From assembly GCF_055900595.2 (NCBI RefSeq), contig NZ_CM148325.1: a stretch of 64,000 nucleotides of DNA; one strand, written 5' to 3'. How positions within the stretch are numbered: position 1 is the stretch's first letter; every line of letters starts with the position of its first letter. The notes beneath the pieces were generated by a model. The model searched no databases. It was given only the letters and a program-made list of their open reading frames with translations, and was not told the DNA's origin. Positions 1 to 19,149 of this stretch are shown here, one piece after another. Made by a program: the position numbers and the translations under genes.

Positions 1-1138
1 GAGGGAAGGCGCCCCATAAACGTGGATGCGGCATGGGATCATTGGGCAGGCCGTCAGAGCCAATCATACTGACCGGATAACTCAACACTCTGCGGACGTC
101 GCGCTCGTCCATGTTGTAATAGATAGCCCCGGCAGGCATTAGCAGCTTCGCGGCCTCCAGCATACTCATCTGCCAGTCGATGGCGATTTGTGCCAGTGTT
201 TTCCCGGCCTGCTGCGGATGCGTTTGTGACCAGGTGATCACAATATCGAATTCGTCGGTGACTTGTTTGAGATCCAGCGTTGAAGAGCTGGCTGAGTATG
301 GGTAGACATCGCAGCCAATTTCCTGGTGTTGACGCATTTGGTCAAAAAAGGCCAACGTTTCTTTTGTCCGCCCCCAGTTTTTCGCCCCGGCGCATTTATG
401 GTGGGAAACCACGACAGGCACTTTGCCATGACGCCCAATACGAAACGCCTCATCCAGGGCATCGAGAATCGGTTCAAATTCAGAACGCAGATGGGTGGTA
501 TAAACGCCCTTCTCACCTGCTAATTCTTCCGCCAGCGCCATGACTTCTTCGGTAGTCGCCTGAAATGCCGTTGCATAGGCCAGCCCGGAACTTAACCCCA
601 GCGCCCCCTGACTCAACGCCAGACGTAAGTCGGCACGCATAGCGGCAATTTCATCCACCGTCGCCGGGCGAAACAGGTCGTCCATATGGTTATTACGCAG
701 CGCCGTATGACCAATCAGCGTGCCAACGTTCAGTGACGGCCTTGCTGCTTCCACTGCCTGGGCATAGCTTTCAACGGTAGGATAAATAAAGTGCTCTGCT
801 TCCCCCAACAGATTCATCGGGTCAGGAACTTCACCTTTCATTTTCGCCGACGCCGCACTGATCCCGCAGTTACCGACAATCACCGTAGTGATCCCCTGAC
901 TGATCTTTGGCAGATATTCCGGGATGCGAATAACGTTGATATCGTCATGGGTATGAACGTCGATAAACCCTGGTGCCAGCACCCGCCCTTCCCCGTCAAT
1001 GACCTGCTGCGCCGTAACGTTAAGCGCAGGGGCAATATCGACAATCCGATCACCTGTTATTGCCACGTCACCGCGAAATTCAGGGCCGCCGCTACCGTCG
1101 ATAACGGTCACATTTTTGATTAACCAGTCAACCTGCAT
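1..1138 (-). CDS. N-acyl-D-amino-acid deacylase-like amidohydrolase, partial (3' end lies beyond window start)
   Basis: Absent from the ORF track because it runs off the window edge. My reverse-strand translation from an ATG near 1138 begins MQVDWLIKNVTVIDGSGG... and carries an FIDVHTHDD metal-binding HxH motif typical of the amidohydrolase superfamily; GGAG lies upstream of the start. Start coordinate approximate. Confidence 0.55.
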   Translation of the reverse strand, partial: MQVDWLIKNVTVIDGSGGPEFRGDVAITGDRIVDIAPALNVTAQQVIDGEGRVLAPGFIDVHTHDDINVIRIPEYLPKISQGITTVIVGNCGISAASAKMKGEVPDPMNLLGEAEHFIYPTVESYAQAVEAARPSLNVGTLIGHTALRNNHMDDLFRPATVDEIAAMRADLRLALSQGALGLSSGLAYATAFQATTEEVMALAEELAGEKGVYTTHLRSEFEPILDALDEAFRIGRHGKVPVVVSHHKCAGAKNWGRTKETLAFFDQMRQHQEIGCDVYPYSASSSTLDLKQVTDEFDIVITWSQTHPQQAGKTLAQIAIDWQMSMLEAAKLLMPAGAIYYNMDERDVRRVLSYPVSMIGSDGLPNDPMPHPRLWGAFP

Positions 1139-1338
1139 GTTCGTCACTCCATTTCTGCAATGGTGACAAGTTAACCATTTACAAGGATGAAAAACAGTGG
1201 AAAACTACGCAAAACCCAGATGATTTTATGATACTTTTATTCATAAACTATAAGATAAATAAACTAAATATTTATATTTCATTTAGTTACAAATGATACT
1301 CACATCCGATACGGTGAAAAACTTAAAAGGTAAATGTT

Positions 1339-2559
1339 ATGAAATACCACTCAGAACCTCTGGTTCCCCATAAATCGGCCCTGATGCAAATGCCCGCAAA
1401 TCTCCTTGCCGAAGATGTCTGTTTACCTGCCGCGATCATTAAAAAGCAGGCCCTGGAGAACAACATTGCGTGGATGCAGCGTTATGCTGACGCGCGCGGC
1501 GTTTCGCTGGCACCGCACGGTAAAACCACCATGACGCCGTGGATTTTTCAGGCGCAGCAGGCGGCTGGTGCCTGGGCAATAGGTGTCGGTAGCGCATGGC
1601 AGGCTGGTGCGGCAATGGCGAGCGGTATTCAGCGAGTGCTGATGGTTAACCAGCTGGTCGGCAAGGCGAATATGCAGTTGATTGCCCAGTTGCAACGACA
1701 TTACCCGACGGTCGATTTTATCTGCTGTATCGACAGCATTGAGAACGCCCGCGCTTTGTCTGCCTTTTTTGCCAGTCAGCAACAGACACTGAACGTGATG
1801 ATTGAGTTGGGTGTCCCCGGCGGACGCTGTGGCTGCCGCTCAACGGATGCCGCACTGGCACTGGCTAAACAGGCGGCCCAATTACCAGGGCTACGTCTGC
1901 GCGGGCTTGAGTTATATGAAGGTGTTTTACACGGTGACGATCCACAACCGCAGGTAGAAGCACTGCTGCGGGATGCCGCACAACTGGCCTGTGATATGGC
2001 AAGTCTGGTTGATGGCGAGTTTATTCTCACCGGAGCAGGCACGGTCTGGTATGACGTGGTGTGCAATATCTGGCTGGCGGCAGAAAAGCCTGATAACTGC
2101 CGCATTGTTATTCGCCCTGGCTGCTACATCACTCACGACACCGGGATCTACGACGCGGCACAACAACAGTTGCTTGCCCGTGATCCTGTGGCCTGTGATC
2201 TGGCAGGCGATCTCACATCTGCGCTGGAACTGGTCGCCATGGTGCAATCGGTGCCGGAAGCTGATCGTGCGGTGGTAAATTTTGGTAAGCGTGATTGCGC
2301 CTTCGACGCCGGACTGCCGCAACCAGTCGCCCACTATCGCAACGGCAAATCACTGGCATTTGATCCACAGGCGATTCGCAGTACAGGCATTATGGATCAG
2401 CACTGCATGTTGCAACTGTCAGCTAATAGCGACGTGCAAGTGGGGGATATTCTGGTGTTTGGCACATCGCATCCGTGCCTGACCTTCGACAAATGGAAAA
2501 CGTTGTTATTGGCTGATGACGACTACAACGTACTGGCAGAATTAGACACTCTCTTCTAA
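1339..2559 (+). CDS. PLP-dependent alanine-racemase-fold enzyme, DSD1 family (D-serine deaminase / D-threonine aldolase-like)
   Basis: ORF track 406 aa. N-terminal PHGKTT lysine motif characteristic of alanine-racemase-fold PLP enzymes; C-terminal region resembles the D-serine dehydratase-like domain. Divergent from the amidohydrolase gene across an AT-rich intergenic region. Confidence 0.6.
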   Translation: MKYHSEPLVPHKSALMQMPANLLAEDVCLPAAIIKKQALENNIAWMQRYADARGVSLAPHGKTTMTPWIFQAQQAAGAWAIGVGSAWQAGAAMASGIQRVLMVNQLVGKANMQLIAQLQRHYPTVDFICCIDSIENARALSAFFASQQQTLNVMIELGVPGGRCGCRSTDAALALAKQAAQLPGLRLRGLELYEGVLHGDDPQPQVEALLRDAAQLACDMASLVDGEFILTGAGTVWYDVVCNIWLAAEKPDNCRIVIRPGCYITHDTGIYDAAQQQLLARDPVACDLAGDLTSALELVAMVQSVPEADRAVVNFGKRDCAFDAGLPQPVAHYRNGKSLAFDPQAIRSTGIMDQHCMLQLSANSDVQVGDILVFGTSHPCLTFDKWKTLLLADDDYNVLAELDTLF

Positions 2560-2565
2560 GAATAC

Positions 2566-2598
2566 CCCTTCGGTTAATTATCGAAGGGGCATTTTTAT
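2566..2598 (+). terminator. Rho-independent terminator candidate after the DSD1-like gene
   Basis: Inverted repeat CCCCTTCG...CGAAGGGG followed by a T-run, read directly after the stop codon. Coordinates approximate. Confidence 0.5.
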
Positions 2599-2826
2599 TG
2601 TGATCTCAATCACATATCCACCCGACGAATAATTCTTGCCCAACCGCTCACCGCCATTCCTGACCGCTTACGTCCCAAATATAACCACTCAGTTATTTAC
2701 CTTACTTTACGCGCGCGTAACTCTGGCAACATCACTGCAGGATAGCGGTCAATTTACCTCCTCAAACGCAACGCAAACCTAGAACGGCTTCGGCCAACTA
2801 TTAATCAATACATGCCAGGTTTTACT

Positions 2827-4977
2827 ATGGATACTAAAAAGATATTCAAGCACATACCCTGGGTGATTCTTGGAATCATCGGTGCATTCTGCCTCGCGGT
2901 AGTTGCATTACGTCGGGGGGAGCACGTCAGCGCCCTGTGGATCGTGGTCGCCTCTGTGTCAGTGTATCTGGTGGCTTATCGCTACTACAGTCTGTACATC
3001 GCCCAGAAAGTGATGAAACTCGACCCCACGCGCGCGACGCCTGCGGTTATTAACAACGACGGTCTGAACTATGTTCCGACCAACCGTTACGTGTTGTTTG
3101 GTCACCACTTCGCTGCTATCGCCGGTGCGGGTCCGCTGGTTGGTCCGGTTCTCGCCGCGCAGATGGGCTACCTGCCTGGTACGCTGTGGCTGCTGGCGGG
3201 GGTAGTGCTGGCCGGTGCGGTACAGGACTTTATGGTGCTGTTTATCTCCTCTCGCCGTAACGGCGCATCTCTCGGTGAGATGATCAAAGAAGAGATGGGG
3301 CCAGTACCGGGAACTATCGCGCTGTTTGGCTGTTTCTTAATCATGATCATCATCCTCGCCGTTCTGGCGCTGATTGTGGTTAAAGCCCTGGCCGAAAGTC
3401 CGTGGGGTGTCTTCACCGTTTGCTCAACCGTACCAATTGCGCTGTTTATGGGTATCTACATGCGCTTTATCCGTCCGGGGCGTGTAGGTGAAGTCTCTGT
3501 TATTGGTATCGTGCTGCTGGTTGCCTCTATCTACTTCGGTGGCGTGATTGCTCACGATCCGTACTGGGGTCCGGCACTGACCTTTAAAGACACCACCATT
3601 ACCTTCGCACTGATTGGCTATGCGTTTGTTTCCGCACTGCTGCCGGTGTGGCTGATCCTCGCACCGCGCGACTATCTGGCAACCTTCCTGAAAATCGGCG
3701 TTATCGTCGGCCTGGCGCTGGGTATCGTGGTGCTGAACCCGGAACTGAAAATGCCTGCGATGACCCAGTACATTGACGGTACTGGCCCGCTGTGGAAAGG
3801 CGCTCTGTTCCCGTTCCTGTTCATCACCATCGCCTGTGGTGCGGTATCTGGCTTCCACGCGCTGATCTCTTCCGGTACGACGCCGAAACTGCTGGCTAAC
3901 GAAACCGACGCGCGTTTCATTGGCTACGGCGCAATGCTGATGGAGTCCTTCGTGGCGATTATGGCGCTGGTTGCTGCGTCCATCATCGAACCGGGTCTTT
4001 ACTTCGCGATGAATACCCCGCCTGCGGGCCTTGGCATCACCATGCCTAACCTGCATGAAATGGGTGGCGAGAACGCGCCGATCATCATGGCGCAGCTGAA
4101 AGACGTTACCGCACACGCGGCAGCGACTGTCAGCTCCTGGGGCTTCGTTATTTCGCCAGAGCAGATCCTGCAAACCGCGAAAGACATTGGTGAGCCTTCT
4201 GTCCTGAACCGTGCAGGTGGTGCGCCGACGCTGGCGGTAGGTATCGCTCACGTGTTCCATAAAGTGCTGCCGATGGCTGACATGGGCTTCTGGTATCACT
4301 TCGGCATTCTGTTCGAAGCCCTGTTCATCCTGACCGCGCTGGATGCGGGTACCCGTTCTGGTCGCTTTATGCTGCAAGACCTGCTGGGTAACTTCATCCC
4401 GTTCCTGAAAAAAACCGATTCTCTGGTTGCCGGTATCATCGGTACTGCGGGCTGTGTGGGTCTGTGGGGCTACCTGCTGTATCAGGGCGTGGTCGATCCG
4501 CTGGGCGGCGTTAAGAGCCTGTGGCCGCTGTTCGGTATCTCCAACCAGATGCTGGCAGCCGTAGCGCTGGTACTGGGCACCGTTGTGCTGATTAAGATGA
4601 AGCGCACCCAATACATCTGGGTGACTGTTGTTCCGGCTGTATGGCTGCTTATCTGCACCACCTGGGCGCTGGGCCTGAAACTGTTCAGCACCAACCCGCA
4701 GATGGAAGGCTTCTTCTACATGGCAAGCCAGTACAAAGAGAAGATTGCTAACGGTACTGACCTGACGGCACAGCAGATTGCCAACATGAACCACATCGTT
4801 GTGAACAACTACACCAACGCGGGTCTGAGTATTCTGTTCCTGATTGTGGTGTACAGCATCATCTTCTACGGTTTCAAAACCTGGCTGAAGGTGCGTAACA
4901 GCGACAAACGTACTGACAAAGAAACACCGTACGTTCCAATCCCGGAAGGCGGCGTGAAGATATCTTCGCACCACTAA
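2827..4977 (+). CDS. btsT: CstA-family pyruvate/H+ symporter BtsT (YjiY)
   Basis: ORF track 2812..4977; start moved to the internal in-frame ATG (aa 6, MDTKKIFKHIPWVILG...) giving 716 aa, the length I recall for E. coli BtsT. Multi-pass hydrophobic CstA-like protein. Confidence 0.9.
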   Translation: MDTKKIFKHIPWVILGIIGAFCLAVVALRRGEHVSALWIVVASVSVYLVAYRYYSLYIAQKVMKLDPTRATPAVINNDGLNYVPTNRYVLFGHHFAAIAGAGPLVGPVLAAQMGYLPGTLWLLAGVVLAGAVQDFMVLFISSRRNGASLGEMIKEEMGPVPGTIALFGCFLIMIIILAVLALIVVKALAESPWGVFTVCSTVPIALFMGIYMRFIRPGRVGEVSVIGIVLLVASIYFGGVIAHDPYWGPALTFKDTTITFALIGYAFVSALLPVWLILAPRDYLATFLKIGVIVGLALGIVVLNPELKMPAMTQYIDGTGPLWKGALFPFLFITIACGAVSGFHALISSGTTPKLLANETDARFIGYGAMLMESFVAIMALVAASIIEPGLYFAMNTPPAGLGITMPNLHEMGGENAPIIMAQLKDVTAHAAATVSSWGFVISPEQILQTAKDIGEPSVLNRAGGAPTLAVGIAHVFHKVLPMADMGFWYHFGILFEALFILTALDAGTRSGRFMLQDLLGNFIPFLKKTDSLVAGIIGTAGCVGLWGYLLYQGVVDPLGGVKSLWPLFGISNQMLAAVALVLGTVVLIKMKRTQYIWVTVVPAVWLLICTTWALGLKLFSTNPQMEGFFYMASQYKEKIANGTDLTAQQIANMNHIVVNNYTNAGLSILFLIVVYSIIFYGFKTWLKVRNSDKRTDKETPYVPIPEGGVKISSHH

Positions 4978-6206: not shown

Positions 6207-6240
6207 ATGGCCGCCATGTGGCGGCCTGAATTATTTTTTA
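6207..6240. terminator. bidirectional terminator candidate between convergent yjiA and brnA
   Basis: GGCCGCCATGTGGCGGCC hairpin flanked by T-runs on both strands. Coordinates approximate. Confidence 0.45.
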
Positions 6241-6533
6241 TTCTGATCGCGCAGCATCGCTTCACGTAAAATTGCGTTCAGGCGAGTTTGATAGCCTTTA
6301 CCTGGTCGCTTCAACCATTCCATCACATCAGCATCAATACGCACCGAAGCCTGAGTTTTCAATGGCCGATAAAACTTACCGCGTTCTGCGTTAGACCATT
6401 GCTCATCGCTGGAAGGTGGGATATCACTGTAATCAATATCTTCGTCGGATTTATTCGCCAGCGCCTTCAGTTCGGCCTCATGCTGCACATCGAGTGTAGA
6501 GGAGGTCCCTCGTTTATGTTTAACCATGCTCAT
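6231..6533 (-). CDS. brnA: BrnA-like antitoxin
   Basis: In-frame start at MSMVKHKRG... (aa 48 of ORF 6231..6674) gives 100 aa. Lies downstream of and overlaps the BrnT-like gene by about 14 nt, the typical brnTA arrangement. Confidence 0.75.
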   Translation of the reverse strand: MSMVKHKRGTSSTLDVQHEAELKALANKSDEDIDYSDIPPSSDEQWSNAERGKFYRPLKTQASVRIDADVMEWLKRPGKGYQTRLNAILREAMLRDQNKK

Positions 6534-6807
6534 AGCGATTCCTCTCTTTACGATCTGCTTTTCGTGCTCTGATGATTCGAATAATTTCATTTCCGCTTTC
6601 GAAACGGATGGTATGCGCAACCAGAATAACCACGATGCCGTAAACCAGGCCGATTGTCTGCCAGCGATACTCACCGTTTTCTATGCGATCTTGCTGTGAC
6701 AAATGTTGTGGATCATCAAACACTAACACCGCATCTTCAAAGCGGATGCCATGTTTCACCCGATTACCTTTGGCCTTGTTTGCATCCCATTTAAACTCCA
6801 TTGGCAT
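6520..6807 (-). CDS. brnT: BrnT-like toxin (DUF497 ribonuclease family)
   Basis: ORF track 6520..6852; product contains MPMEFKWDANKAKGNRVKHGIRFEDAVLVFDDP, the conserved BrnT N-terminus. Start chosen at MPMEF (aa 16); aa 13 or aa 18 are alternatives. Confidence 0.75.
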   Translation of the reverse strand: MPMEFKWDANKAKGNRVKHGIRFEDAVLVFDDPQHLSQQDRIENGEYRWQTIGLVYGIVVILVAHTIRFESGNEIIRIIRARKADRKERNRYEHG

Positions 6808-7003
6808 AGTTGCCATCCCTAATTGTATATACAAAAATGTATCTACAATCATTCTGCAATTATAGCGTTGATGTTGGAAATAGCATCACGTTTTGGATAA
6901 TCAACCATGAAATTGACAATGTGTGAGTTGGACTTGATTCATCCAATAGAATTTCTCGCCTGACATGGCACACTAAGCACCTCGCTGTCGTTAAGGGATT
7001 ACC

Positions 7004-8170
7004 GTGAAAAACTACAAAGTTATTACTCCGCTTTTTCCTACCTATGCGCAAGTTAAGGCTATGATGAAAGCCGTATCAGGCTATTCCCTGAAAGCGGTGC
7101 GCAATATGATTACTGCCATTCACGAGCAAACCGGAACGCCGCAAAAACCCGTTGACTGGTCGGAACCTGACCTGTGGATCAGCGAACGCTTAACGGGTGA
7201 AGATGCCGACATCGCCCGTCGTATTTGGGATACCGATAATCACATATTGAACCCGCGCCACAGCTACGGCTGCTACTTATTCCTTAACTATCCCCAGTTT
7301 GAGCTGATGGAAAGCACGCCAGACGATACCTGGCAGCCCACCTCGCGCGGGCAAAAATTCCTGCAAGATGACGAAAAAACGCTGCGTTCACTGGACGATC
7401 AGGAAGGCATTCTGCAACTTCTTGAACTGTTGGCAGGCCGTGAAATGTCGCGCCGCGCCGATTTATTGCCGGAATGGCAGGCCTTTTTGCATCAACATTC
7501 AAAATTCGCGTCTGCCAGTTCGGTGAAAAGCACACTCTACTCCCGACTCTATAATCTTATCGACCGTGACATGGTTACTCGCGAAGGTATGAGCTATCGC
7601 ATCACCGATACCGGGCGCGCCTGGCTTGGAAAAGCGTTGCCGGCACGAAAAAGCGATCCGCGTAAAGAGCTGCTGGAAGCGGTGAAACGCTACAACGAGC
7701 AGCAAAAAGAGCTGCTGCGCGAGCAAATCAGCACGATGAACCCGTACAAATTTGAGCAACTGGTCGGTCAATTACTGGAAGCAATGGGCTACGAGCAGGT
7801 CGAAGTGACCAAAGCCTCAGGCGATAAAGGCGTGGACGTGATTGGTCAGGTGCAGGTCGGCATCACCACCATTACAGAAGTGGTGCAGGTCAAAAGAATG
7901 CAGAACACTATCACTCGCCCGTATATCGACCAGTTGCGCGGGGCGTTGCCTTACCACAAAGCCATTCGCGGTACGCTCATCACCACCGGGAAATTTGCGG
8001 CGAAATGTGCAGAAGCGGCGCTCTTTCCGGGGGCAGCGCCCATTACGCTTATCGACGGCGATCGCTTACTGGAACTGTTAATCGAAAATAACGTCGGCAT
8101 TCGCCGCAGCAATGCAGTGGAATTGCTGGATGTAGATTTGCAGTTGTTTGATGAGCTGGAGATGGATTAA
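7004..8170 (+). CDS. mrr: Mrr-family Type IV restriction endonuclease (longer than K-12 Mrr)
   Basis: 388 aa; C-terminal Mrr catalytic-domain motifs (GDKGVDVIG ... VVQVKR ... LITTGKF) seen in the translation. The ORF track M corresponds to a GTG start preceded by AAGGGA. N-terminal two-thirds does not match K-12 Mrr as I recall it. Confidence 0.7.
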   Translation: MKNYKVITPLFPTYAQVKAMMKAVSGYSLKAVRNMITAIHEQTGTPQKPVDWSEPDLWISERLTGEDADIARRIWDTDNHILNPRHSYGCYLFLNYPQFELMESTPDDTWQPTSRGQKFLQDDEKTLRSLDDQEGILQLLELLAGREMSRRADLLPEWQAFLHQHSKFASASSVKSTLYSRLYNLIDRDMVTREGMSYRITDTGRAWLGKALPARKSDPRKELLEAVKRYNEQQKELLREQISTMNPYKFEQLVGQLLEAMGYEQVEVTKASGDKGVDVIGQVQVGITTITEVVQVKRMQNTITRPYIDQLRGALPYHKAIRGTLITTGKFAAKCAEAALFPGAAPITLIDGDRLLELLIENNVGIRRSNAVELLDVDLQLFDELEMD

Positions 8171-8233
8171 AGGGCGAAATCTGCCGTCTCTACCATTACA
8201 ATAGCGACCCAATTTATCTGAACAGAGTTCATC

Positions 8234-9853
8234 ATGGCCAAAGCACCAACTAAAAAAGCCAAAGCAAAGAAAGGCTTTGAAGAAACATTATGGGATACCG
8301 CAAACCAACTTCGCGGTAGCGTTGAGTCTTCCGAATACAAGCACGTGGTGTTGAGCCTCGTGTTCCTGAAATTCATCAGCGATAAGTTTGAAGCACGCCG
8401 CAAAAAAATGATTGCCGATGGGCAAGCTGACTTCCTTGAGATGGAAGTGTTCTACCAGCAGGACAACATTTTCTACCTGCCGGAAGAGGCGCGCTGGTCA
8501 TTTATCAAACAAAATGCCAAACAGGACGATATTGCGGTTCGTATTGACACCGCCCTCTCGACCATTGAGAAACGTAACCCAACCCTGAAAGGCGCGCTGC
8601 CAGACAACTACTTCAGCCGTCAGAATCTGGAAACCAAAAAACTGGCGTCACTGATTGATACCATCGACAACATCGAAACGCTGGCACACGAAACTGACGT
8701 TGAAACGTTATCGAAAGAAGACCTGGTCGGACGCGTTTACGAATACTTCCTCGGTAAGTTTGCCGCAACTGAAGGCAAAGGCGGTGGTGAGTTCTACACG
8801 CCAAAATGTGTGGTTACACTGTTAACAGAAATGCTCGAACCCTTCCAGGGCAAAATTTATGACCCGTGCTGCGGCTCGGCGGGGATGTTTGTGCAGTCAG
8901 TGAAGTTTGTCGAGAGCCATCAGGGTAAAAGTCGTGATATCGCGCTGTATGGTCAGGAACTGACAGCCACGACGTATAAACTGGCAAAAATGAACCTCGC
9001 TATTCGCGGTCTTTCAGCTAACCTCGGCGAACGCCCGGCAAACACTTTCTTTAGCGACCAGCACCCGAACCTGAAAGCCGACTACATTCTAGCGAACCCG
9101 CCGTTCAACCTGAAAGACTGGCGTAATGAAGCCGAATTAACCAAAGATCCACGTTTTGCCGGTTATCGTATGCCGCCAACCGGTAACGCCAACTACGGCT
9201 GGATTTTGCATATGCTCTCCAAGCTGTCGGCTAACGGCACAGCAGGTTTTGTGTTGGCAAACGGATCGATGAGTTCTAACACCAGCGGCGAAGGCGAGAT
9301 CCGTGCACAGATGATCGAAAATGATCTGATTGACTGCATGATCGCCCTACCTGGACAGTTGTTTTACACCACGCAGATCCCGGTGTGTTTATGGTTTATG
9401 ACCAAATCGAAGGCTGCCGATCCGGCCAAAGGTTATCGTGATCGTCAGGGCGAGACGCTGTTTATTGATGCGCGTAACCTCGGCACCATGGTTAGCCGCA
9501 CAACTAAAGAGTTAACGACGGAAGATATTGCCACAATCGCCGATACCTACCATGCCTGGCGCAGCACGCCGGAAGAACTGGCTGCGCGGATTGCGCGTGG
9601 TGACAGCAAGCTGGAAAAATATGAAGACCAGGCAGGCTTCTGCAAAGTTGCGACCCTGCAAGATATTAAAGATAACGACTACGTTCTGACACCGGGCCGC
9701 TATGTGGGTGCAGCCGAGCAGGAAGAAGACGGCGTGGCATTTGAGACGAAAATGCATGAATTGTCGAAGACGTTGTTTGAGCAGATGAAGCAGGCGGAAG
9801 AACTGGATCGTGCGATTCGCCAGAATCTGGAGGCGCTGGGTTATGGGGAGTAA
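8234..9853 (+). CDS. hsdM: Type I restriction-modification methyltransferase subunit HsdM
   Basis: 539 aa; N6-adenine methyltransferase motifs GEFYTP (X), DPCCGSAGMF (I) and NPPFN (IV) present in the translation. Confidence 0.9.
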   Translation: MAKAPTKKAKAKKGFEETLWDTANQLRGSVESSEYKHVVLSLVFLKFISDKFEARRKKMIADGQADFLEMEVFYQQDNIFYLPEEARWSFIKQNAKQDDIAVRIDTALSTIEKRNPTLKGALPDNYFSRQNLETKKLASLIDTIDNIETLAHETDVETLSKEDLVGRVYEYFLGKFAATEGKGGGEFYTPKCVVTLLTEMLEPFQGKIYDPCCGSAGMFVQSVKFVESHQGKSRDIALYGQELTATTYKLAKMNLAIRGLSANLGERPANTFFSDQHPNLKADYILANPPFNLKDWRNEAELTKDPRFAGYRMPPTGNANYGWILHMLSKLSANGTAGFVLANGSMSSNTSGEGEIRAQMIENDLIDCMIALPGQLFYTTQIPVCLWFMTKSKAADPAKGYRDRQGETLFIDARNLGTMVSRTTKELTTEDIATIADTYHAWRSTPEELAARIARGDSKLEKYEDQAGFCKVATLQDIKDNDYVLTPGRYVGAAEQEEDGVAFETKMHELSKTLFEQMKQAEELDRAIRQNLEALGYGE

Positions 9854-11207
9854 GTTTCAACTAATTTTATTAGATAATGTGGCCGAGGTAATCGACTCTA
9901 GACATAAAACCCCCAATTACACAGAAACCGGCTACCCAATGGTTCGTGTTGTCGATATTAAAAATGGTGAATTAGATTTAAAGAATACAAAGAGAGTCAC
10001 AAAGGATATATACGAGGACTTTTCAAAAGGACGATCTCCACAGATTGGAGATCTCATTATTTCCCGAGTAGGCTCATATGGGAACATATCCTACGTTTCA
10101 AAAAATGAAAAATTTTGCCTAGGGCAAAACACTGCATTTATTATCCCAAATGAAAAAAATAGCTATCTATATTATGCTTTAATATCTCCTTTTGTACAAC
10201 AACAAATTAACGACATGGCTGTCGGTGCTGTACAAAAAACAATTAGTTTAAAAAGCATTAAAAATTTAAAAATTCCGTACCCAGAGTTAAATATAAGAAA
10301 TATTATTTCTAAAAAATTAAGAGTTATTGATAATAGGATAAGTACTAATGATAAAATAAATCAAACCCTGGAAAAAATGTCCCAAACCCTGTTCAAATCC
10401 TGGTTTGTGGATTTTGATCCGGTGATTGATAACGCTCTGGATGCAGGAAATCCAATCCCGGAAACCCTGCAATCTCGTACCGAATTGCGTCAAAAAGTAC
10501 GTAATAGTACAGATTTTAAACCGCTTCCGGCGGAAATTCGCTCGCTTTTCCCAAGTGAATTTGAAGAAACGGAGTTGGGTTGGGTGCCAAAGGGCTGGAC
10601 GCTGAAGTCTGTAGCAAAATCCATAAATATAAATCCTAGTCTAAAATTACCAAAAAATAAAATCGCAAAGTATGTTGATATGAAATCTTTACCTACTCAA
10701 GGATATTCAATATCAGATATTATTGAAAAGCCATATTCAGGGGGAGCGAAATTCCAAAATAACGATACTTTATTCGCTCGGATAACTCCATGCCTAGAAA
10801 ATGGTAAAACAGGATTTGTTGATTTTTTAGATGAAAAAGAGACTGCGTTTGGCTCTACTGAATTTATAGTGATGCGAGGTACTCCTCAAGTACATTATTT
10901 GTATGTGGCTTGTTTAGCCCGAGAAAGTAATTTCAGGTTACATGCAATACAAAACATGATCGGTTCATCCGGCCGCCAACGGGTACAGAATAGCTGCTTT
11001 GATAGCTTTTATATTGCAATACCAACACCTGCTGTAATGAGCTTATTTTCAGGAAAAGTCAGTAGTTACTTTGATAAAATGTATTTCTGTAATTTGGAAA
11101 ACAAATCCCTGACAGCCCTCCGCGACACCCTGCTCCCGAAACTCATCTCCGGCGAGCTATCCCTGGAAGATCTTCCGGATCTCACCACCGATACAGAAGC
11201 CGCATAA
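9843..11207 (+). CDS. hsdS: Type I restriction-modification specificity subunit HsdS (two TRDs)
   Basis: ORF track 9810..11207; start set at in-frame MGSKFQL (aa 12), overlapping the hsdM stop. Two AT-rich variable regions separated and followed by conserved spacer segments (LFKSWFVDFDP ..., LRDTLLPKLISGEL). Confidence 0.85.
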   Translation: MGSKFQLILLDNVAEVIDSRHKTPNYTETGYPMVRVVDIKNGELDLKNTKRVTKDIYEDFSKGRSPQIGDLIISRVGSYGNISYVSKNEKFCLGQNTAFIIPNEKNSYLYYALISPFVQQQINDMAVGAVQKTISLKSIKNLKIPYPELNIRNIISKKLRVIDNRISTNDKINQTLEKMSQTLFKSWFVDFDPVIDNALDAGNPIPETLQSRTELRQKVRNSTDFKPLPAEIRSLFPSEFEETELGWVPKGWTLKSVAKSININPSLKLPKNKIAKYVDMKSLPTQGYSISDIIEKPYSGGAKFQNNDTLFARITPCLENGKTGFVDFLDEKETAFGSTEFIVMRGTPQVHYLYVACLARESNFRLHAIQNMIGSSGRQRVQNSCFDSFYIAIPTPAVMSLFSGKVSSYFDKMYFCNLENKSLTALRDTLLPKLISGELSLEDLPDLTTDTEAA

Positions 11208-11301
11208 CGCATTTTGCCCCTGTAAAATCAGGGGCTTTCTGGTAAGGTTTTCTACTGATACGGGAATGCTTACCAGAAATTAGCCAGGGTTGGAGCGCGA
11301 T

Positions 11302-14300
11302 ATGAGTCTCTCTTTCAGTGAAGCAAAATTAGAACAAGCGATCATTGAACTGTTACAGGATCAGGGATATCAACACCTGATCGGCGATAATGTCCCACGT
11401 TCAAGTCTCGATCAGGTCATTATCGAAGACGATCTCCGTCATTATTTAGCGGCACGCTACCAGCCTGATGGCATTACTGAAGAAGAGATTCAGCGACTGA
11501 TCAAACAGTTCACCACGCTCCCCGCTTCCGATCTTTATGAAAGCAACAAAACATTTTGTCGCTGGCTGGCAAATGGTTTTCTGTTCAAACGCGACGATCG
11601 GCAACAAAAAGATCTCTATATTGAATTGCTCGACACCCGGCATCTACCTGCCGCACTGCGCCAGATATTTGACGCCGAAGATGTCCCGTTGCAACAGGCG
11701 GCGGAACTCCCGCCCTCCTATATTAATCCGCCGCTTAACCGGATTAAGATTGTTAACCAGCTTAAAATCTCTGGTAAAGATAATCAGACTCGTATTCCTG
11801 ACGGCATTCTCTATATCAACGGTCTGCCACTGGTCGTCTTTGAATTTAAAAGTGCGGTGCGCGAGCAGGATGCCAGTATTGGCGATGCCTGGAAGCAGCT
11901 CTGTAAACGCTATCGCCGGGATATTCCGCAACTGTTTATCTACAACGCGCTCTGCATTATTAGCGATGGCGTTAATAACCGGATGGGCAACCTGTTTGCG
12001 CCCTATGAATATTTTTACTCATGGCGCAAAGTCACCGGTAATGAAAACCGTGAACAGGACGGAATTCCGTCATTGCACTCAATGATTCAGGGGCTGTTTC
12101 ATCCGGTACGTCTGCTGGATGTGATTAAAAACTTTATCTGCTTCCCGGATAAAGCCAAGCACGAAGTAAAAATTTGCTGCCGTTATCCGCAGTACTATGC
12201 CGCCCGCAAACTCTATTACAGCATCAAGCAAGCGCGTAAACCTTTCGGTAGCGGTAAAGGCGGCACCTACTTTGGCGCAACGGGCTGTGGCAAAAGTTAC
12301 ACCATGCAATTTTTAACGCGTCTTTTGATGAAGAGCGTGGAGTTTGCCAGCCCGACCATTGTTTTGATCACCGACCGCACCGATCTGGACGATCAGCTTT
12401 CTGCGCAAATGTGCAATGCCAAAAATTACATTGGCGACGACACCATCGTTCCTGTTACCAGCCGTGAAGATTTGCGTAATCAACTGGCGGGACGCAATAG
12501 TGGCGGTGTATTCCTGACAACGATCCATAAATTCACCGAAGACACCGAACTCCTTTCTGAACGCAGCAATATCATTTGCATCTCGGACGAAGCACATCGC
12601 AGCCAGGTTAACCTCGACCAGAAAGTCATCGTCGATAAAGAAAGCGGAAAAGTGCGCAAAACTTATGGCTTTGCGAAATACCTGCACGATTCACTGCCAA
12701 ACGCCACCTATGTTGGCTTTACCGGAACTCCGATTGACGCAACACTCGATGTCTTCGGTGAGGTGATCGACAGTTACACCATGACCGAATCCGTTCAGGA
12801 TGAAATCACTGTACGCATCGTGTACGAAGGCCGTGCGGCTAAAGTGATCCTGGACTCCAGCAAACTGGAAGAAGTCGAAAAGTATTACGAAGAGTGCGCA
12901 AACGCAGGCACCAATGAGTGGCAAATCGACGAAAGCAAAAAAGCCACCGCAACCATGAATGCGGTACTGGGTGATGAAGATCGGTTAAAAGCCCTCGCGG
13001 AAGATTTTGCTAAACATTATGAAAAACGCGTAGCCGAAGGTTCCACCGTAAAAGGCAAAGCCATGTTTGTTTGTGCCAGCCGTGAAATTGCCTGGGATTT
13101 CTACCGTCAGCTTAAAGCTATTCGCCCTGCCTGGTATGAAGTGAAGCAAGCCCCCGATGGCGTCGTCCTGACAGAACAGGAGCAAAAAGAGTTACCGCCT
13201 TCTGAAATGGTGAAGATGGTCATGACGCGCGGTAAAGATGACGACGAGGCGCTTTATGATTTACTGGGCACAAAAGAATATCGTAAAGAGCTGGATAAGC
13301 AGTTCAAAAACGCTAAATCGAATTTCAAAATTGCCATTGTTGTTGATATGTGGCTGACCGGTTTTGACGTTCCTGAACTGGATACCATCTATATTGATAA
13401 GCCCTTACAAAAACATAACCTTATCCAGACCATTTCTCGCGTTAACCGTAAACTGGAAGGCAAAAGTAAAGGGTTAGTGGTGGACTACATCGGCATTAAA
13501 AGTCAGATGAACCAGGCACTGGCAATGTATTCCCGCATTGATGCCACCAACTTTGAAGATATTCAGCAATCGGTAATCGAAGTTAAAAACCATCTCGATT
13601 TGTTGGGGCAAGTCTTTTACGAATTTGACAGTCGGGATTATTTTAGTGGTGAGCCACAAGCGCAATTATCCTGCCTCAACCGCGCGGCGGAATTCGTTCT
13701 GAGTACCCAGAAAGTTGAACGTCGTTTTATGGGACTGGTTAAACGCATGAAAGCCGCCTACGACGTCTGCTGCGGCAGCGAAGCATTATCACAGACAGAA
13801 CGTGACTATATTCACTATTATCTTGCTGTTCGTTCAATTGTTTTCAAACTGACGAAAGGTGACGCACCGGATGTTACCCAGATGAATGCACGCGTTCGCG
13901 AAATGATTGCAGAAGCGTTAAAAGCTGATGGCGTAGAAGAGATTTATTTTCTTGGCGATAAAAAAGCGGAATCCATCGATATTTTTGACGAAGATTATCT
14001 GGCGCGAATTAACAAGATCAAACTTCCGGCAACGAAGATCCAGTTATTACAAAAATTACTGGAAAAAGCAATCAGCGACTTCAAGAAAGTGAACCAGTTG
14101 CAAGGGATTAACTTCACCCGCCGCTTCCAGGCGATTATAGATCGTTATAATGAGCGGCGAGAAGATGATGTACTCAACGGTGAAGAATTCGATACATTCA
14201 GTCAGGAAATGACCGATATTATCTATGATATTAAAACCGAAATGGGTACCTGGGCCGACTTAGGCATTGATATTGAAGAAAAAGCCTTTTTCGACATTCT

Positions 14301-14565
14301 TGCTCATATGCGCGATAAATATCAGTTCACCTATGACGATGAAAAAATGCTGTCACTGGCAAAAGAGATGAAAAGCGTGGTTGACAACACATCGAAATAT
14401 CCTGACTGGAGTAAACGCGATGATATTAAAGCGAAACTGAAAGTTGAACTTATTCTGCTTCTACACAAGCATAAGTTCCCGCCAGTAGCGAATGATGATG
14501 TTTATATGGGTGTGCTGGCACAGGCAGAGAATTTTAAAGAACACCATATGAGTGCTTTAAATTAA
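11302..14565 (+). CDS. hsdR: Type I restriction enzyme R subunit HsdR
   Basis: ORF track 11290..14565; helicase motifs GATGCGKSYT (Walker A) and ISDEAHRS (DEAH box) seen. Start placed at second in-frame ATG (MSLSF), which has GGAG upstream; 11290 is the alternative. Confidence 0.9.
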   Translation: MSLSFSEAKLEQAIIELLQDQGYQHLIGDNVPRSSLDQVIIEDDLRHYLAARYQPDGITEEEIQRLIKQFTTLPASDLYESNKTFCRWLANGFLFKRDDRQQKDLYIELLDTRHLPAALRQIFDAEDVPLQQAAELPPSYINPPLNRIKIVNQLKISGKDNQTRIPDGILYINGLPLVVFEFKSAVREQDASIGDAWKQLCKRYRRDIPQLFIYNALCIISDGVNNRMGNLFAPYEYFYSWRKVTGNENREQDGIPSLHSMIQGLFHPVRLLDVIKNFICFPDKAKHEVKICCRYPQYYAARKLYYSIKQARKPFGSGKGGTYFGATGCGKSYTMQFLTRLLMKSVEFASPTIVLITDRTDLDDQLSAQMCNAKNYIGDDTIVPVTSREDLRNQLAGRNSGGVFLTTIHKFTEDTELLSERSNIICISDEAHRSQVNLDQKVIVDKESGKVRKTYGFAKYLHDSLPNATYVGFTGTPIDATLDVFGEVIDSYTMTESVQDEITVRIVYEGRAAKVILDSSKLEEVEKYYEECANAGTNEWQIDESKKATATMNAVLGDEDRLKALAEDFAKHYEKRVAEGSTVKGKAMFVCASREIAWDFYRQLKAIRPAWYEVKQAPDGVVLTEQEQKELPPSEMVKMVMTRGKDDDEALYDLLGTKEYRKELDKQFKNAKSNFKIAIVVDMWLTGFDVPELDTIYIDKPLQKHNLIQTISRVNRKLEGKSKGLVVDYIGIKSQMNQALAMYSRIDATNFEDIQQSVIEVKNHLDLLGQVFYEFDSRDYFSGEPQAQLSCLNRAAEFVLSTQKVERRFMGLVKRMKAAYDVCCGSEALSQTERDYIHYYLAVRSIVFKLTKGDAPDVTQMNARVREMIAEALKADGVEEIYFLGDKKAESIDIFDEDYLARINKIKLPATKIQLLQKLLEKAISDFKKVNQLQGINFTRRFQAIIDRYNERREDDVLNGEEFDTFSQEMTDIIYDIKTEMGTWADLGIDIEEKAFFDILAHMRDKYQFTYDDEKMLSLAKEMKSVVDNTSKYPDWSKRDDIKAKLKVELILLLHKHKFPPVANDDVYMGVLAQAENFKEHHMSALN

Positions 14566-14811
14566 TTATGAAGGCCGGATAATTCAATAATTATTCGGCT
14601 TACTCATTTATAAATATGGTAAAAACATCATAACAATATCTATAAATCATAGTTAAAAAAATCACGCTAACTCATTAAAAATATAAGTATTTTCACATTA
14701 TGGGTAAAAATACCATTCTCCTTTTGAGCTTAACAAATACAGACTCTATCCATTCATAACAGATCCGTGCATAATTTCATTTATCGCAGCACAACCAAAA
14801 CACAACACAAC

Positions 14812-14926
14812 CATCACATCACATCACATCACATCACATCACATCACATCACATCACATCACATCACATCACATCACATCGCATCACATCGCATCACATC
14901 ACATCGCATCACATCGCATTACATCA
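14812..14926. repeat. pentanucleotide microsatellite, about 23 units of CATCA with CATCG/CATTA variants
   Basis: Read directly: (CATCA)n runs uninterrupted from about 14812, with CATCG and CATTA variant units toward the 3' end, in the AT-rich intergenic region between hsdR and the downstream S-M module. Confidence 0.9.
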
Positions 14927-15220
14927 ACTTAACTTAAGTTAATAAATTTAAAACATATAACGCACAAAATTGGTCGTCTGATCTTTAGCGGAAAAAATCA
15001 TGACTGTAAAGTCATCATGTATTAACTACTTTTCCAGATATCACACCATTAAAAAAAATAAAAAAAATCAATTAGTTATAAAATTTTCAAACATAACACA
15101 TAACATTAATCTGATGCTCTCCAAAAAAATTAAGCAGTGCAGGGTGACAACCCCATAGCAGTACGCTACCTTACTGAAAAATTACTTAATACGATACTGA
15201 AAGTTAGAAGGAGCCACACC

Positions 15221-15391
15221 ATGAGGAAAAAGAAAGGGTTAAACCGAGTTATTTGCTTGTTTTTGATAACAATTTTATCACATTTAGTGTCTGATGATGA
15301 TATCCTATTATTTCAGTTAGAGGATCTGTCAAAAGCAAATACCTCTATGGGTATTCATCTTTCCGTTGATTTCAAACATGAGACCAAATGA
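15221..15391 (+). CDS. small ORF (56 aa) translationally coupled to the downstream half-S gene; hypothetical
   Basis: In-frame ATG (aa 29 of ORF 15137..15391) preceded by AGAAGGAG at 7-nt spacing; stop overlaps the next start as ATGA. Product MRKKKGLNRVICLFLITILSHLV... has a basic N-terminus and one hydrophobic stretch. No family recognised. Confidence 0.35.
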   Translation: MRKKKGLNRVICLFLITILSHLVSDDDILLFQLEDLSKANTSMGIHLSVDFKHETK

Positions 15392-15969
15392 TTATGAAAA
15401 ATCTATCAGAGATAGCATATGTTTTTGGTGGACACTCATTTCGTACCAAAGCTGAAGCTGCAACAGGTTGCATCAAACTTATTCAGATAAAAGATATACA
15501 GGCAGGCATATTTGGTGATTTCTCGTCACTTCCTTTTGCAGATCTTTCAGAAGAAAAACTAAAATTCAACCTAAAAACAAATGATATTCTTTTACCTTTA
15601 AGAGGCGAAAGGATAGCAGCAATGATGATAGATAACGAAAATAATGTTGCAGTTACTACAACGAATCAAATTGCCATTATAAGAATTAATAGCAATTTGA
15701 TCACTCCAGAGTATTTGTTATATTTTCTAAATGCACCGAAAGGTATTAATCTGATAAATGAACTACAAGGTAACGGATTGGTTACAAACCTTAGCATAAA
15801 AAAACTTACAACATTAACATTACCGATTCCATCATTGGATATTCAATATGAAGTTATTAACCTTCATAACATGTGGACAAAACAAAAAGAGACCTTATGT
15901 AGTTTAATAGAAAATGGTTCTGCATTGTGTCATGCAACAATCAATAAGTTAATCTACAAAGGAGAGTAA
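15388..15969 (+). CDS. half-size (single-TRD) Type I-like specificity subunit (HsdS-like)
   Basis: 193 aa; begins like a target-recognition domain (LSEIAYVFGGHSF) and ends with the conserved TRD-distal segment (ITPEYLLYFLNAPKGINLINELQGNGLVTNLSIKKLTTLTLPIP). AT-rich codon usage. Followed 3 nt later by the MTase gene. Confidence 0.7.
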   Translation: MIMKNLSEIAYVFGGHSFRTKAEAATGCIKLIQIKDIQAGIFGDFSSLPFADLSEEKLKFNLKTNDILLPLRGERIAAMMIDNENNVAVTTTNQIAIIRINSNLITPEYLLYFLNAPKGINLINELQGNGLVTNLSIKKLTTLTLPIPSLDIQYEVINLHNMWTKQKETLCSLIENGSALCHATINKLIYKGE

Positions 15970-15971
15970 AT

Positions 15972-17231
15972 ATGAAAATACAAGAATTTATAAGCATATT
16001 ACAATCTATCCCCTGCAATTCCCTGGATAAATACCAGAAAATGCTTATTTGTTTTGAAGCTACTGTACTAACTTATTTACATAAGGACTCTGCCAAGAAA
16101 ATTATATCAGTAAGTGAAATGGATATTGAACATATTTACAGACACTCGCCGTCATTAAATAAAAACAAAGTAACATGGGATGAGTTTTCTTATATTTTTT
16201 CAGATATAATCTTTCATATAAAGTCCTCTAACATGGATGTCAATAAATATATATCAAATATATTTCAACACCTTTGTTACGATTATCATCACAAAAAATT
16301 CTCTAAAATAGATATTATTAATATAATCACCTCGAATATTGAGCAACTAAGACCTCTATCTCAAAGGCATCATACTCCTAATGAGTTGGTTGAATTAATG
16401 AGTAAAATAGTCAATATCCAAGATGGTGATATTTTTTATGATCCTGCATGTGGTTCAGGTGAGTTCATTTCTGCAATGTTTAATAAAAATGTCATGATAT
16501 ATGGTACTGAAAGCATCATAGAAAGAGCTAAAATATCAAAATTAAAAATGCTCGCAACCGGAAATAATCCTTTAAATATTACGACGCCATATTTTAACGA
16601 TAATAATCTACCTGAAAAATTTGATATTATTTTATCCAACCCCCCTTTCTCTCTAAAAATACCTGAAAATATGCAAAAAAAAATTTGCATTTATGGAGAA
16701 CCACCTGTTTCAAATGCTGATTTTATATTTTTACAATTCTGCATTTACAAACTAAAAAATAATGGATGCGCTGCTATCATCATGCCGGACAGCATTTTAT
16801 TTAGAAGTGGAAAAGAACAAGAAATACGTAAATCATTTATTGAGAAAGGGCATATTTCCACCATTATTTTTTTACCGAAAGGTATTTTTAAAAACACTTA
16901 TGTACCAACAAGCATTTTGCTACTACGCAAGCAAAATGACTATGACGACATCCTATTCATTGATGCAAGAGATAAAACAACCTTCAACAACGATCTTATA
17001 ATTCATTTATTTACTGAACGTGAAAATAATAAGTTATCGAAGATTGTTACAAAATCAGAAATTGCTGATAATGATTATAACTTGTCAGCAGCATTATATT
17101 TTAAAGAAGAAACAGAAATACCAGAAATAGAACAATTAATAGACAATCAAAAATACCTCAGCAGTAAATTACAGGATTTACATTATGATTTCATTCACAC
17201 TATATCCAGATTATCACCAAAAAATGAATAA
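15972..17231 (+). CDS. compact gamma-class N6-adenine DNA methyltransferase (HsdM-like, 419 aa)
   Basis: Motif I DPACGSGEF and motif IV NPPFS in HsdM-like order and spacing; AGGAG precedes the ATG. Strongly AT-rich. About 130 N-terminal residues unassigned. Confidence 0.8.
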   Translation: MKIQEFISILQSIPCNSLDKYQKMLICFEATVLTYLHKDSAKKIISVSEMDIEHIYRHSPSLNKNKVTWDEFSYIFSDIIFHIKSSNMDVNKYISNIFQHLCYDYHHKKFSKIDIINIITSNIEQLRPLSQRHHTPNELVELMSKIVNIQDGDIFYDPACGSGEFISAMFNKNVMIYGTESIIERAKISKLKMLATGNNPLNITTPYFNDNNLPEKFDIILSNPPFSLKIPENMQKKICIYGEPPVSNADFIFLQFCIYKLKNNGCAAIIMPDSILFRSGKEQEIRKSFIEKGHISTIIFLPKGIFKNTYVPTSILLLRKQNDYDDILFIDARDKTTFNNDLIIHLFTERENNKLSKIVTKSEIADNDYNLSAALYFKEETEIPEIEQLIDNQKYLSSKLQDLHYDFIHTISRLSPKNE

Positions 17232-17261
17232 TTTGCTGCAAAACGCCACGCTAAGCTCCCC

Positions 17262-17284
17262 CCTTCCCTGCACGGGAAGGGGAA
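17262..17284. terminator. hairpin between convergent MTase gene and yjiS
   Basis: CCCTTCCC-TGCAC-GGGAAGGG inverted repeat read directly. Coordinates approximate. Confidence 0.4.
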
Positions 17285-17292
17285 TTGCCCCC

Positions 17293-17457: not shown

Positions 17458-17633
17458 CTGCTGCCTCCTCATCTTTCAGAGGCTTCATCATCCGCCTTCT
17501 GGCAGTTCACAATACAGATGCAAATATCAGTTTTATTTAACATACAGACAGGTTAAAACAACATCTGCATCCGGTTTTTTAGCCTCATCTGTACCGGTTT
17601 TTCTCTCTGTATGGTCCAAATAAGGAGTACAGC

Positions 17634-19046: not shown

Positions 19047-19149
19047 ATTCGAAATAGTGGCGAAGCGCCTGATTTCCTCTCACGAATCGCGTGTGACTCG
19101 TTTTATCTTTGCAGGGTCATCGTCACGTTCCAGCCTGAATTAAGCAAAG

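Follow-up and report, generated by a model that had tools for sequence, protein, structure and literature searches.

A divergent gene pair upstream of btsT in Escherichia coli as the probable end of an ong-type island for an oxidised amino sugar

The 64,000-nucleotide stretch of Escherichia coli DNA analysed here (the window; contig NZ_CM148325.1 of RefSeq assembly GCF_055900595.2) begins with two divergently transcribed genes upstream of btsT, one for an amidohydrolase and the other for an enzyme dependent on pyridoxal phosphate (PLP). A sequence-only reading proposed that the two form a small catabolic module for a D-amino acid or an N-acyl-D-amino acid, perhaps tied in function to btsT. Several questions are raised by this locus. 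Is the pair a complete unit? On what do the enzymes act? Where does their product go? Does the position beside btsT have any meaning? The answer that we consider likely is that these two genes make up the right end of a five-gene ong-type island, which would catabolise a C1-oxidised N-acetyl-hexosamine; its most likely substrate would be N-acetyl-D-glucosaminate (GlcNAc1A) or the C4 epimer, not a proteinogenic D-amino acid.

Both genes are present where they had been placed. The amidohydrolase gene (1..1138, minus strand) starts at an ATG at 1138 with GGAG 8 nt upstream, and its open reading frame (ORF) leaves the window at position 1, with 379 of 480 codons visible. These 379 residues, the 5′ part of a predicted OngB-like N-acetyl-hexosaminate deacetylase, are 100% identical to the 480-aa protein of E. 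coli EC416, the closest complete genome, whose DNA is 99.2–99.3% identical to that of the window pair and differs from it by 15 synonymous and no non-synonymous changes. The second gene (1339..2559, plus strand) encodes a 406-aa protein, predicted to be an OngC-like fold-type III PLP deaminase (ammonia-lyase). The AT-rich spacer that the two had been said to share over roughly 200 bp measures exactly 200 bp (1139..1338) and has 29% GC, against 54–55% in both genes. A check with hidden Markov models bore out the fold assignments, Pfam Amidohydro_3 (E = 2e-21) for the former protein and Ala_racemase_N (5e-13) plus D-ser_dehydrat (PF14031; 5e-16) for the latter. Although the two genes hold up, they are not the complete unit. 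In the EC416 annotation the pair is the right-hand end, truncated by the window, of a five-gene island between tsr and btsT: a MurR/RpiR regulator, then on the opposite strand an SSS symporter, a RidA protein and the 480-aa amidohydrolase, and finally the divergent deaminase; the regulator, symporter and RidA genes are located beyond window position 1. In K-12 tsr directly adjoins btsT, as had been claimed, and by pairwise blastn a 135-bp segment there gives way to 5,912 bp in EC416. Megablast boundaries and the comparison of K-12 with EC416 place the right island junction at 2560..2643, K-12-type genomes being alignable only from 2644 on and those carrying the hpa (4-hydroxyphenylacetate) cluster from 2581 on.

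To what kind of system does the island belong? The ong cluster of Pseudoalteromonas prydzensis ACAM 620 serves the catabolism of GlcNAc1A, a product of oxidised chitin (Jiang et al., 2022; PMC9537276). It comprises a TonB-dependent transporter (OngOT), an SSS importer (OngIT), a deacetylase (OngB), a PLP deaminase that converts D-glucosaminate (GlcN1A) to 2-keto-3-deoxy-gluconate (KDG) and ammonia (OngC), a kinase (KdgK), a GH20 protein (OngA), an RpiR repressor (OngR) and a RidA protein that is essential but has been given no assigned role (OngD). Knock-outs of P. prydzensis abolish growth on GlcNAc1A, assays yield GlcN1A and then KDG, and each enzymatic and transport step is backed by knock-outs and enzyme assays in that organism (PMC9537276). 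The E. coli island holds five of these eight component types, namely OngR, OngIT, OngD, OngB and OngC. Its identification is not new because it is already tabulated in the supplement of the same paper: Supplementary Data 3 counts 13 strains of E. coli among the ong-positive organisms, along with E. fergusonii and one Escherichia sp., and five of its Escherichia rows contain ongC, ongR, ongB, ongD and ongIT without ongOT, kdgK, ongA or the gene for a lytic polysaccharide monooxygenase (LPMO; PMC9537276). The island is a member of a published pathway family, not a new kind of system.

What does the deacetylase say about the substrate? It is a subtype-V amidohydrolase with the D-aminoacylase fold, and NCBIfam gave no curated equivalog for either this protein or the deaminase. 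When the full-length amidohydrolase was compared with PDB sequences, the matches in descending order were KleDacyl of Klebsiella pneumoniae (9G5M; 84% identity), PpOngB of P. prydzensis (9KB1; 54% identity, 559 bits; a further PpOngB structure is 9KB3), the D-aminoacylase AfDam of Alcaligenes faecalis (458 bits) and the N-acyl-D-glutamate deacylase BbDam of Bordetella (389 bits). In the oxidative chitin pathway PpOngB deacetylates GlcNAc1A. Like two of its homologs it is active on GlcNAc1A only, with no activity on N-acetyl-D-amino acids, and true D-aminoacylases are inactive on GlcNAc1A (PMC12017989). By mutagenesis, this specificity was traced to Ser292, where D-aminoacylases have Thr, and to Gln298, where they have Leu or Arg; Glu226, Ser290, Ala193, Ala256 and Gly348 are further residues of the sugar-binding site (PMC12017989). 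In a gap-free alignment the E. coli deacetylase keeps 17 of the 18 active-site residues of PpOngB: the ligands C91, H216 and H246 of a Cys/His/His metal site and the catalytic D362 (C97, H222, H252 and D368 of PpOngB), the sugar-binding residues E220, S284, S285, S286, Q292, A187 and A250, of which S286 and Q292 correspond to Ser292 and Gln298, and the carboxylate and acetamido anchors. The D-aminoacylase pocket, with its hydrophobic or basic side chains, is absent: the counterparts of Phe191, Met254, Leu298 and Met346 of AfDam and of the Thr at its Ser292-equivalent position are Ala, Ala, Gln, Asn and Ser, and that of Arg295 of BbDam, at the Gln298-equivalent position, is Gln. The OngB signature, which AfDam does not have, is invariant across 80 genomic homologs, the yield of scanning one genome per species with an OngB alignment; all five E. 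coli proteins were then mapped onto these 80 loci. From a library of 1.84 billion representative proteins, the 60 best matches include 51 full-length sequences, of which two carry the signature and the other 49 have Thr at the Ser292 position.

Could the locus still be a genuine N-acyl-D-amino-acid and D-amino-acid module, turning for example N-acetyl-D-Ser, -Thr or -Met into a keto acid, as the sequence-only reading taken literally would have it? KleDacyl hydrolyses N-acetyl-D-Met, -Phe and -Trp with D-specificity (PMC12149444), and PpOngC deaminates D-Ser and D-Thr in vitro (PMC9537276). However, the efficiency of KleDacyl is very low (Km 19–32 mM, kcat/Km 1.5–2.8 min-1 mM-1; PMC12149444), its kcat/Km of ∼47 M-1 s-1 lying roughly 30-fold under that of PpOngB on GlcNAc1A (1.6 mM-1 s-1), and because it has the OngB signature and an ong-like genomic context this activity is probably a side reaction. 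The replaced D-aminoacylase pocket and the inactivity of PpOngB-type enzymes on N-acetyl-D-amino acids also argue against such a module, as do the genes that accompany the homologs, which are for kinases and aldolases of keto-deoxy sugar acids and, in Pseudomonas, for a GntP-family transporter. The regulator points in the same direction: it is of the RpiR type with a phosphosugar-binding SIS domain, and its nearest NCBIfam model is HexR, at a score below the cutoff. We therefore regard a D-amino-acid module as quite improbable. What survives of that proposal is the order of deacylation followed by deamination; the D-amino-acid substrate class most probably gives way before the OngB signature, the other island genes and the kinase and aldolase genes of the relatives.

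The deaminase can be placed in the same family. Its best solved relative is PDB 3gwq, a 'D-serine deaminase' of Burkholderia xenovorans (45% identity over the full length, 646 bits), which is 94% identical to a deaminase adjoining an OngB-like gene in Paraburkholderia and is therefore taken as an ortholog in the OngC family. D-threonine aldolases score 131–135 bits and chicken D-serine dehydratase 38 bits, against 646 for 3gwq, and the NCBIfam model BhcC gives 106 bits against a cutoff of 690. Adjacency of deaminase and deacetylase genes is kept in 25 of the 80 homolog loci. OngC-type proteins share an invariant K62 (in PHGKT) and the motif SHPCLTFDKW, of which H378-P-C380 is invariant in 10 of them. 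In PLP enzymes of this kind the C-terminal metal-binding motif is His-x-Cys in dehydratases and His-x-Asp in aldolases; the aldolase 4v15 has S-H-V-D at the position of the H-P-C motif, in a weak second alignment stretch (E 1.6). A PDB search with the C-terminal domain alone matched only 3gwq, and the profile search that gave the 4v15 stretch aligned none of the dehydratases over this domain. From these relationships the deaminase is predicted to convert a 2-amino-2-deoxy-hexonate to a 2-keto-3-deoxy-hexonate and ammonia.

An outline of the route that we infer by homology for E. coli, with experimental support coming from the Pseudoalteromonas papers, is as follows. The SSS symporter would import the C1-oxidised N-acetyl-hexosamine, GlcNAc1A or its C4 epimer, together with Na+. 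The amidohydrolase, through its Cys/His/His metal site, would remove the acetyl group to give acetate and a 2-amino-2-deoxy-hexonate, formally a D-alpha-amino acid. The PLP enzyme would then carry out an alpha,beta-elimination of the C3 hydroxyl, and RidA would speed the hydrolysis of the resulting enamine or imine to ammonia and 2-keto-3-deoxy-hexonate. Finally, the chromosomal kdgK/eda genes, for KDG, or dgoK/dgoA, for 2-keto-3-deoxy-galactonate (KDGal), would complete the path to pyruvate and glyceraldehyde-3-phosphate, and the RpiR/SIS regulator would probably repress both divergent promoters through conserved boxes in the spacer. By NCBIfam the transporter belongs to the SSS superfamily and the small protein to the Rid family, and the catalytic Arg of the latter aligns with that of E. 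coli RidA. The last steps must be supplied by core kdgK/eda or dgoKA because the island encodes no kinase or aldolase: no kinase, of the PfkB KdgK type or otherwise, is found in the island, either in the EC416 annotation or in the copies among 5,426 complete E. coli genomes. Core kdgK lies elsewhere and is present in 5,421 of the 5,426 genomes, and dgoKA in 5,020.

Several observations weigh against this assignment, or against GlcNAc1A as the exact substrate. The E. coli locus has no LPMO, GH20 OngA, TonB-dependent OngOT or kinase. A literature search found no published test of growth on GlcNAc1A, or of induction or activity with it, in Escherichia. The kinship of the deaminase is only 44–47% identity, measured on OngC homologs from Vibrio ong clusters, the sole characterised OngC being that of P. 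prydzensis. One cavity residue of the deacetylase deviates, Gly348 of PpOngB being N342 in E. coli. KleDacyl has been published as a D-acylase, and neither GlcNAc1A nor glucosaminic acid occurs in the text of that paper (PMC12149444). Finally, the corresponding clusters of Klebsiella and Leclercia contain genes of the DgoK/DgoA type, not of the KdgK/Eda type, which speaks against GlcNAc1A as the exact substrate here.

How far do the clusters of relatives support a gluco- or a galacto-configured substrate? At the gluco end, two Vibrio loci among the 80 carry all five genes (OngB 61–62%, RidA 84–86%, SSS 68–69%, regulator 51–55% and deaminase 44–46% identical to those of E. coli) and additionally encode a PfkB KDG kinase, an Eda-type aldolase, a GH20 enzyme and a lactonase, and one library representative (P0001) lies in a canonical ongC-R-B-D-IT-kdgK-ongA cluster in the exact order of P. 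prydzensis. Among enterobacteria, the core of ongC divergent from ongB and ridA is kept together with the regulator in 13 Enterobacterales genomes, and the core is present in K. pneumoniae, too. The K. pneumoniae cluster, which contains the KleDacyl gene, reads OngC, then divergently OngB-RidA-SSS-DGOK-aldolase, then RpiR; lgoT, lgoR and lgoD border it on one side, and the opposite border is either a hydroxyproline or an hpa cluster. These seven genes recur in Leclercia, with hpa and tsr-lgoT as neighbours, and the flanking genes thus show synteny with the E. coli island. Clusters with a DGOK kinase and a DgoA-type aldolase occur in K. pneumoniae, Leclercia, Rahnella, Buttiauxella, Cedecea, Enterobacter sp. 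R1 and isolate RIT691. The kinase belongs to the DGOK family (PF05035, E = 4e-90) with 51% identity to E. coli DgoK, and the aldolase shares 70% identity with E. coli DgoA and scores 302 bits, against a cutoff of 207, with the model NF006600 for the aldolase of 2-keto-3-deoxy-6-phosphogalactonate (KDPGal). The aldolases of the relatives have the DgoA-type motif AVGG where that of the Vibrio cluster has the Eda-type PTGG, a position with a role in stereochemistry. The residue at PpOngB position 348 follows the same division. Asn occupies it throughout the Enterobacterales and Burkholderiaceae homologs, E. coli N342 included, and wherever the clusters of these two groups hold a kinase and an aldolase these are of the DgoK/DgoA type; it is Gly or Cys in all clusters of the PfkB/Eda type, those of Pseudoalteromonas, Vibrio, P. 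entomophila, Andreprevotia and P0001.

These observations raise the possibility that the enterobacterial branch converts N-acetyl-D-galactosaminate (GalNAc1A) through D-galactosaminate and KDGal to KDPGal, or has dual specificity. A galacto-configured substrate is implied by the KDGal-type finish in the relatives because the deaminase leaves C4 untouched, and the change from Gly to Asn in the cavity tracks the kinase type. The Klebsiella aldolase has been termed a KDG-6-P aldolase and galactonate is never mentioned in the ong paper (PMC9537276); our literature search found nothing relevant on galactosaminate catabolism. Against this, the E. coli island itself has no DgoK- or DgoA-like genes, and no copy of the seven-gene form was found among the 5,426 E. 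coli genomes. The correlation between Asn and DgoK is only suggestive because it sets two independent clades against about five, and a search of the representative library for extra clades left, after clustering at 50%, two OngB-family representatives, the second of which (P0002) has no nearby kinase. Moreover, the PpOngB contacts to the C4-OH through C6-OH groups (E226, S290, Q298) are unchanged in E. coli, the transporter is 68–69% identical to that of Vibrio, whose clusters carry a KDG kinase, and GalNAc1A has no established natural source. The core dgo operon is induced by D-galactonate, and KDG induces kdgK/eda; KDGal formed in E. coli could thus be stranded. On balance we view the galacto route as a tentative alternative that falls short of an even chance. 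The DgoK/DgoA genes at the Klebsiella and Leclercia clusters, with the Asn pattern, are nonetheless the new part of this analysis and a possible lead toward it.

Three further arrangements were met in the survey. Pseudomonas fluorescens (L027, 7636–11458) and ∼55 other Pseudomonas loci have a three-gene module in which an OngB-like deacetylase, complete in its OngB signature, is joined by an OngR-like regulator and a transporter of the GntP family (gluconate/DsdX-like). No OngC, RidA or SSS gene lies within 10 kb of this module, and the deacetylated product must be processed elsewhere. In K. pneumoniae (L090, 17411–21440) a sigma-54 activator with PRD and EIIA-Man domains and components of a mannose-family phosphotransferase system (PTS) are encoded ∼1.5 kb from the ong-like cluster, genes that we take to be reminiscent of the dga D-glucosaminate PTS system of Salmonella; if they are dga, adjacent systems might divide the gluco- and galacto-type amino-sugar acids between them. 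On a planctomycete-like metagenome contig (L092, 6999–12320), a deacetylase with the OngB signature and the Asn-type residue is accompanied by RidA and an SSS transporter, with a GDSL-esterase/BNR (sialidase-like) protein and a TRAP transporter adjacent and with no OngC and no kinase.

Is the island in use, and how did it come to be in some strains and not in others? The pair is accessory, as had been proposed, and not part of the conserved core: it is present in 194 of the 5,426 complete genomes (3.6%), at 98.2–99.3% identity and with at least 80% query coverage in all carriers. This low frequency, the absence from every E. coli copy of the kinase and aldolase genes that Klebsiella and Leclercia have, and the loss of the whole island in most strains while Klebsiella and Leclercia retain the same locus would fit a decaying, non-functional remnant of the enterobacterial cluster of seven genes. 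None of the five ORFs is disrupted, however, and the ratio of non-synonymous to synonymous divergence (dN/dS) between E. coli island alleles is 0.03–0.07, which indicates long-term strong purifying selection on the island genes; the carriers are uniform in coverage and identity, as given above, and core kdgK/eda and dgoKA would be able to replace the lost genes. We consider decay very improbable, and a functional ong-type island the better description. Recent horizontal acquisition, considered on the basis of GC content, was rejected as well, since the island has 54–55% GC, as do btsT and yjiA, its dS between alleles (0.04–0.08) is the same as that of the flanking lgoT (0.07), and its locus is syntenic with those of Klebsiella and Leclercia. 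On the same grounds the simplest history would be presence in the ancestor followed by repeated loss. Of 60 carriers sampled at even intervals from the 194, 17 were from chickens or other birds (raw counts, not enrichment) and others from pig, cattle, goat, sheep, dog, cat, pangolin and humans; many carrier lineages in the sample are thus from poultry and livestock.

The interval between tsr and btsT appears as a hotspot for catabolic cassettes, being empty in K-12, occupied by the hpa cluster in other strains and by the island alone in EC416. An O6:H16 strain and the poultry strain MB52 carry the island plus, between it and btsT, a hydroxyproline-utilisation cluster with genes for a 4-hydroxyproline epimerase, a D-hydroxyproline dehydrogenase, a protein like dihydrodipicolinate synthase, an aldehyde dehydrogenase, an APC permease and an Ldh_2 protein, and the same alternative neighbours, hydroxyproline or hpa, flank the orthologous cluster of K. 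pneumoniae.

Does the adjacency to btsT (2827–4977, followed by yjiX and yjiA) then have a functional meaning? The link suggested by the sequence-only reading was rejected. The content between tsr and btsT varies by strain, and the deaminase gene has its own intrinsic terminator (2565..2599, plus strand; from a terminator scan, with 6 GC pairs among the 10 bp of its stem and a T-run after it). Because the upstream region of btsT past the island junction matches that of island-free strains and the neighbours vary, the adjacency looks incidental. In this upstream region, just past the junction, lies a perfect CRP-type palindrome, TGTGATCTCAATCACA, at 2599–2614, followed by the direct repeats ACCGCTCA (2643–2650) and ACCGCTTA (2663–2670), with the variant TGTGATATGAATCACA in the 135-bp segment of K-12; we take these repeats to resemble the BtsR/YehT site of the btsT promoter. 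For btsT itself, the ATG of the longest ORF is at 2812 (MPGFTMDTKK...) and the RefSeq start is at 2827 (MDTKK...), the two in-frame ATGs being 15 nt apart.

How might the divergent genes be controlled? In an alignment of 13 Enterobacterales intergenic regions, the spacer blocks at 1168–1186, 1189–1213, 1229–1244 and 1293–1300 are invariant or nearly so, and the rest is variable AT-rich DNA. The blocks are candidate promoter elements or OngR operators, a function that we only infer because a sigma-70 promoter scan of the spacer gave 2 matches against 2.1 expected, not above chance. Rfam gave no match anywhere in the window, and therefore no riboswitch or small RNA is assigned to the control regions.

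Other features of the window lie beyond btsT. Directly after yjiA, at 6231–6810 on the minus strand, is a BrnT/BrnA-type toxin-antitoxin pair (annotated in EC416 and MB52), where K-12 has mrr nearby. An immigration-control region follows (∼7000–20300), with a stand-alone restriction endonuclease, a type I restriction-modification system (M, S and an R subunit of ∼1,090 aa), a second pair of S-subunit and N6-methylase genes, yjiS, yjiR and an Rpn-family gene; the arrangement is uncommon because its best match in the 5,426 genomes, in MB52, reaches only 97.7% identity over 96% of the query. Since this region is nearby, the island was also considered as an anti-phage defence island, and this was rejected for want of a relevant PADLOC match: PADLOC returned the generic RidA domain in its model PD-T4-2_B, and the same protein matched a type I specificity-subunit model marginally (E 7.5e-4). 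Further on, at 30507–35747, is an intact ORF of 1,746 aa; MB52 has in this position the inverse autotransporter gene iatD, interrupted by an IS3 element.

If the island is of the ong type as proposed, carbon and nitrogen from a C1-oxidised amino sugar could be available to a minority of E. coli lineages, a strain-specific niche that would be hidden by annotation labels such as "D-aminoacylase" and "amino acid deaminase". Such sugars arise by the action of LPMO on chitin or by oxidation of free hexosamines. KleDacyl (9G5M) would then be a probable hexosaminate deacetylase and 3gwq an ortholog of OngC. Should the galacto route prove correct, it would be a new catabolic route with a link to mucin-derived GalNAc, oxidised mucin GalNAc would become a candidate gut nutrient, and E. 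coli would retain a cluster cut back to five genes and borrow its core dgoKA.

How does the island compare with known systems? The dga pathway of Salmonella for D-glucosaminate consists of a mannose-family PTS, the ammonia-lyase DgaE acting on the 6-phosphate, the aldolase DgaF and the sigma-54 activator DgaR. There, too, an amino-sugar acid is channelled to an aldolase that cleaves keto-deoxy-phosphogluconate, but the pathway phosphorylates first through the PTS and uses unrelated enzymes and a sigma-54 regulator, none of which is in the E. coli island. With DSD1-type D-serine dehydratases, D-threonine aldolases and D-3-hydroxyaspartate aldolase/dehydratase (3ANU, 4V15, 7DIB, 6QKB, 3WQC), the deaminase shares the Pfam domains, the fold-type III PLP scaffold and the region of the PLP lysine; these proteins differ in scoring 38–135 bits against 646 for 3gwq and in a C-terminal domain that is mostly unalignable by sequence. 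The functional information on 3gwq itself is the structural-genomics name given by its depositors, and the Paraburkholderia clusters have no SSS transporter. Among amidohydrolases, AfDam (1M7J) and the Bordetella N-acyl-D-glutamate deacylase (3GIP) have lower bit scores than PpOngB, and the AfDam pocket of Phe, Met, Gly, Thr and Met stands against Ala, Ala, Ser, Ser and Asn in the E. coli deacetylase.

KleDacyl (9G5M/9GV8) is closer, with an identical active-site signature at 84% identity and an orthologous cluster at the syntenic locus on the lgo side, although the Klebsiella cluster holds two genes more than the E. coli island; the terms 'genomic context' and 'RidA' are absent from the text of the KleDacyl paper (PMC12149444). 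From the ong cluster of P. prydzensis the E. coli island differs in having no LPMO, TonB-dependent transporter, GH20 OngA or in-cluster KdgK, in its gene order, with ongC divergent from ongB and ongR at the far end, and in sequence, the OngB proteins being 54% and OngC-type proteins about 45% identical and G348 being Asn in E. coli. The two have in common the five protein types, the metal and sugar residues of OngB, and an order of deacetylation and then deamination without prior phosphorylation.

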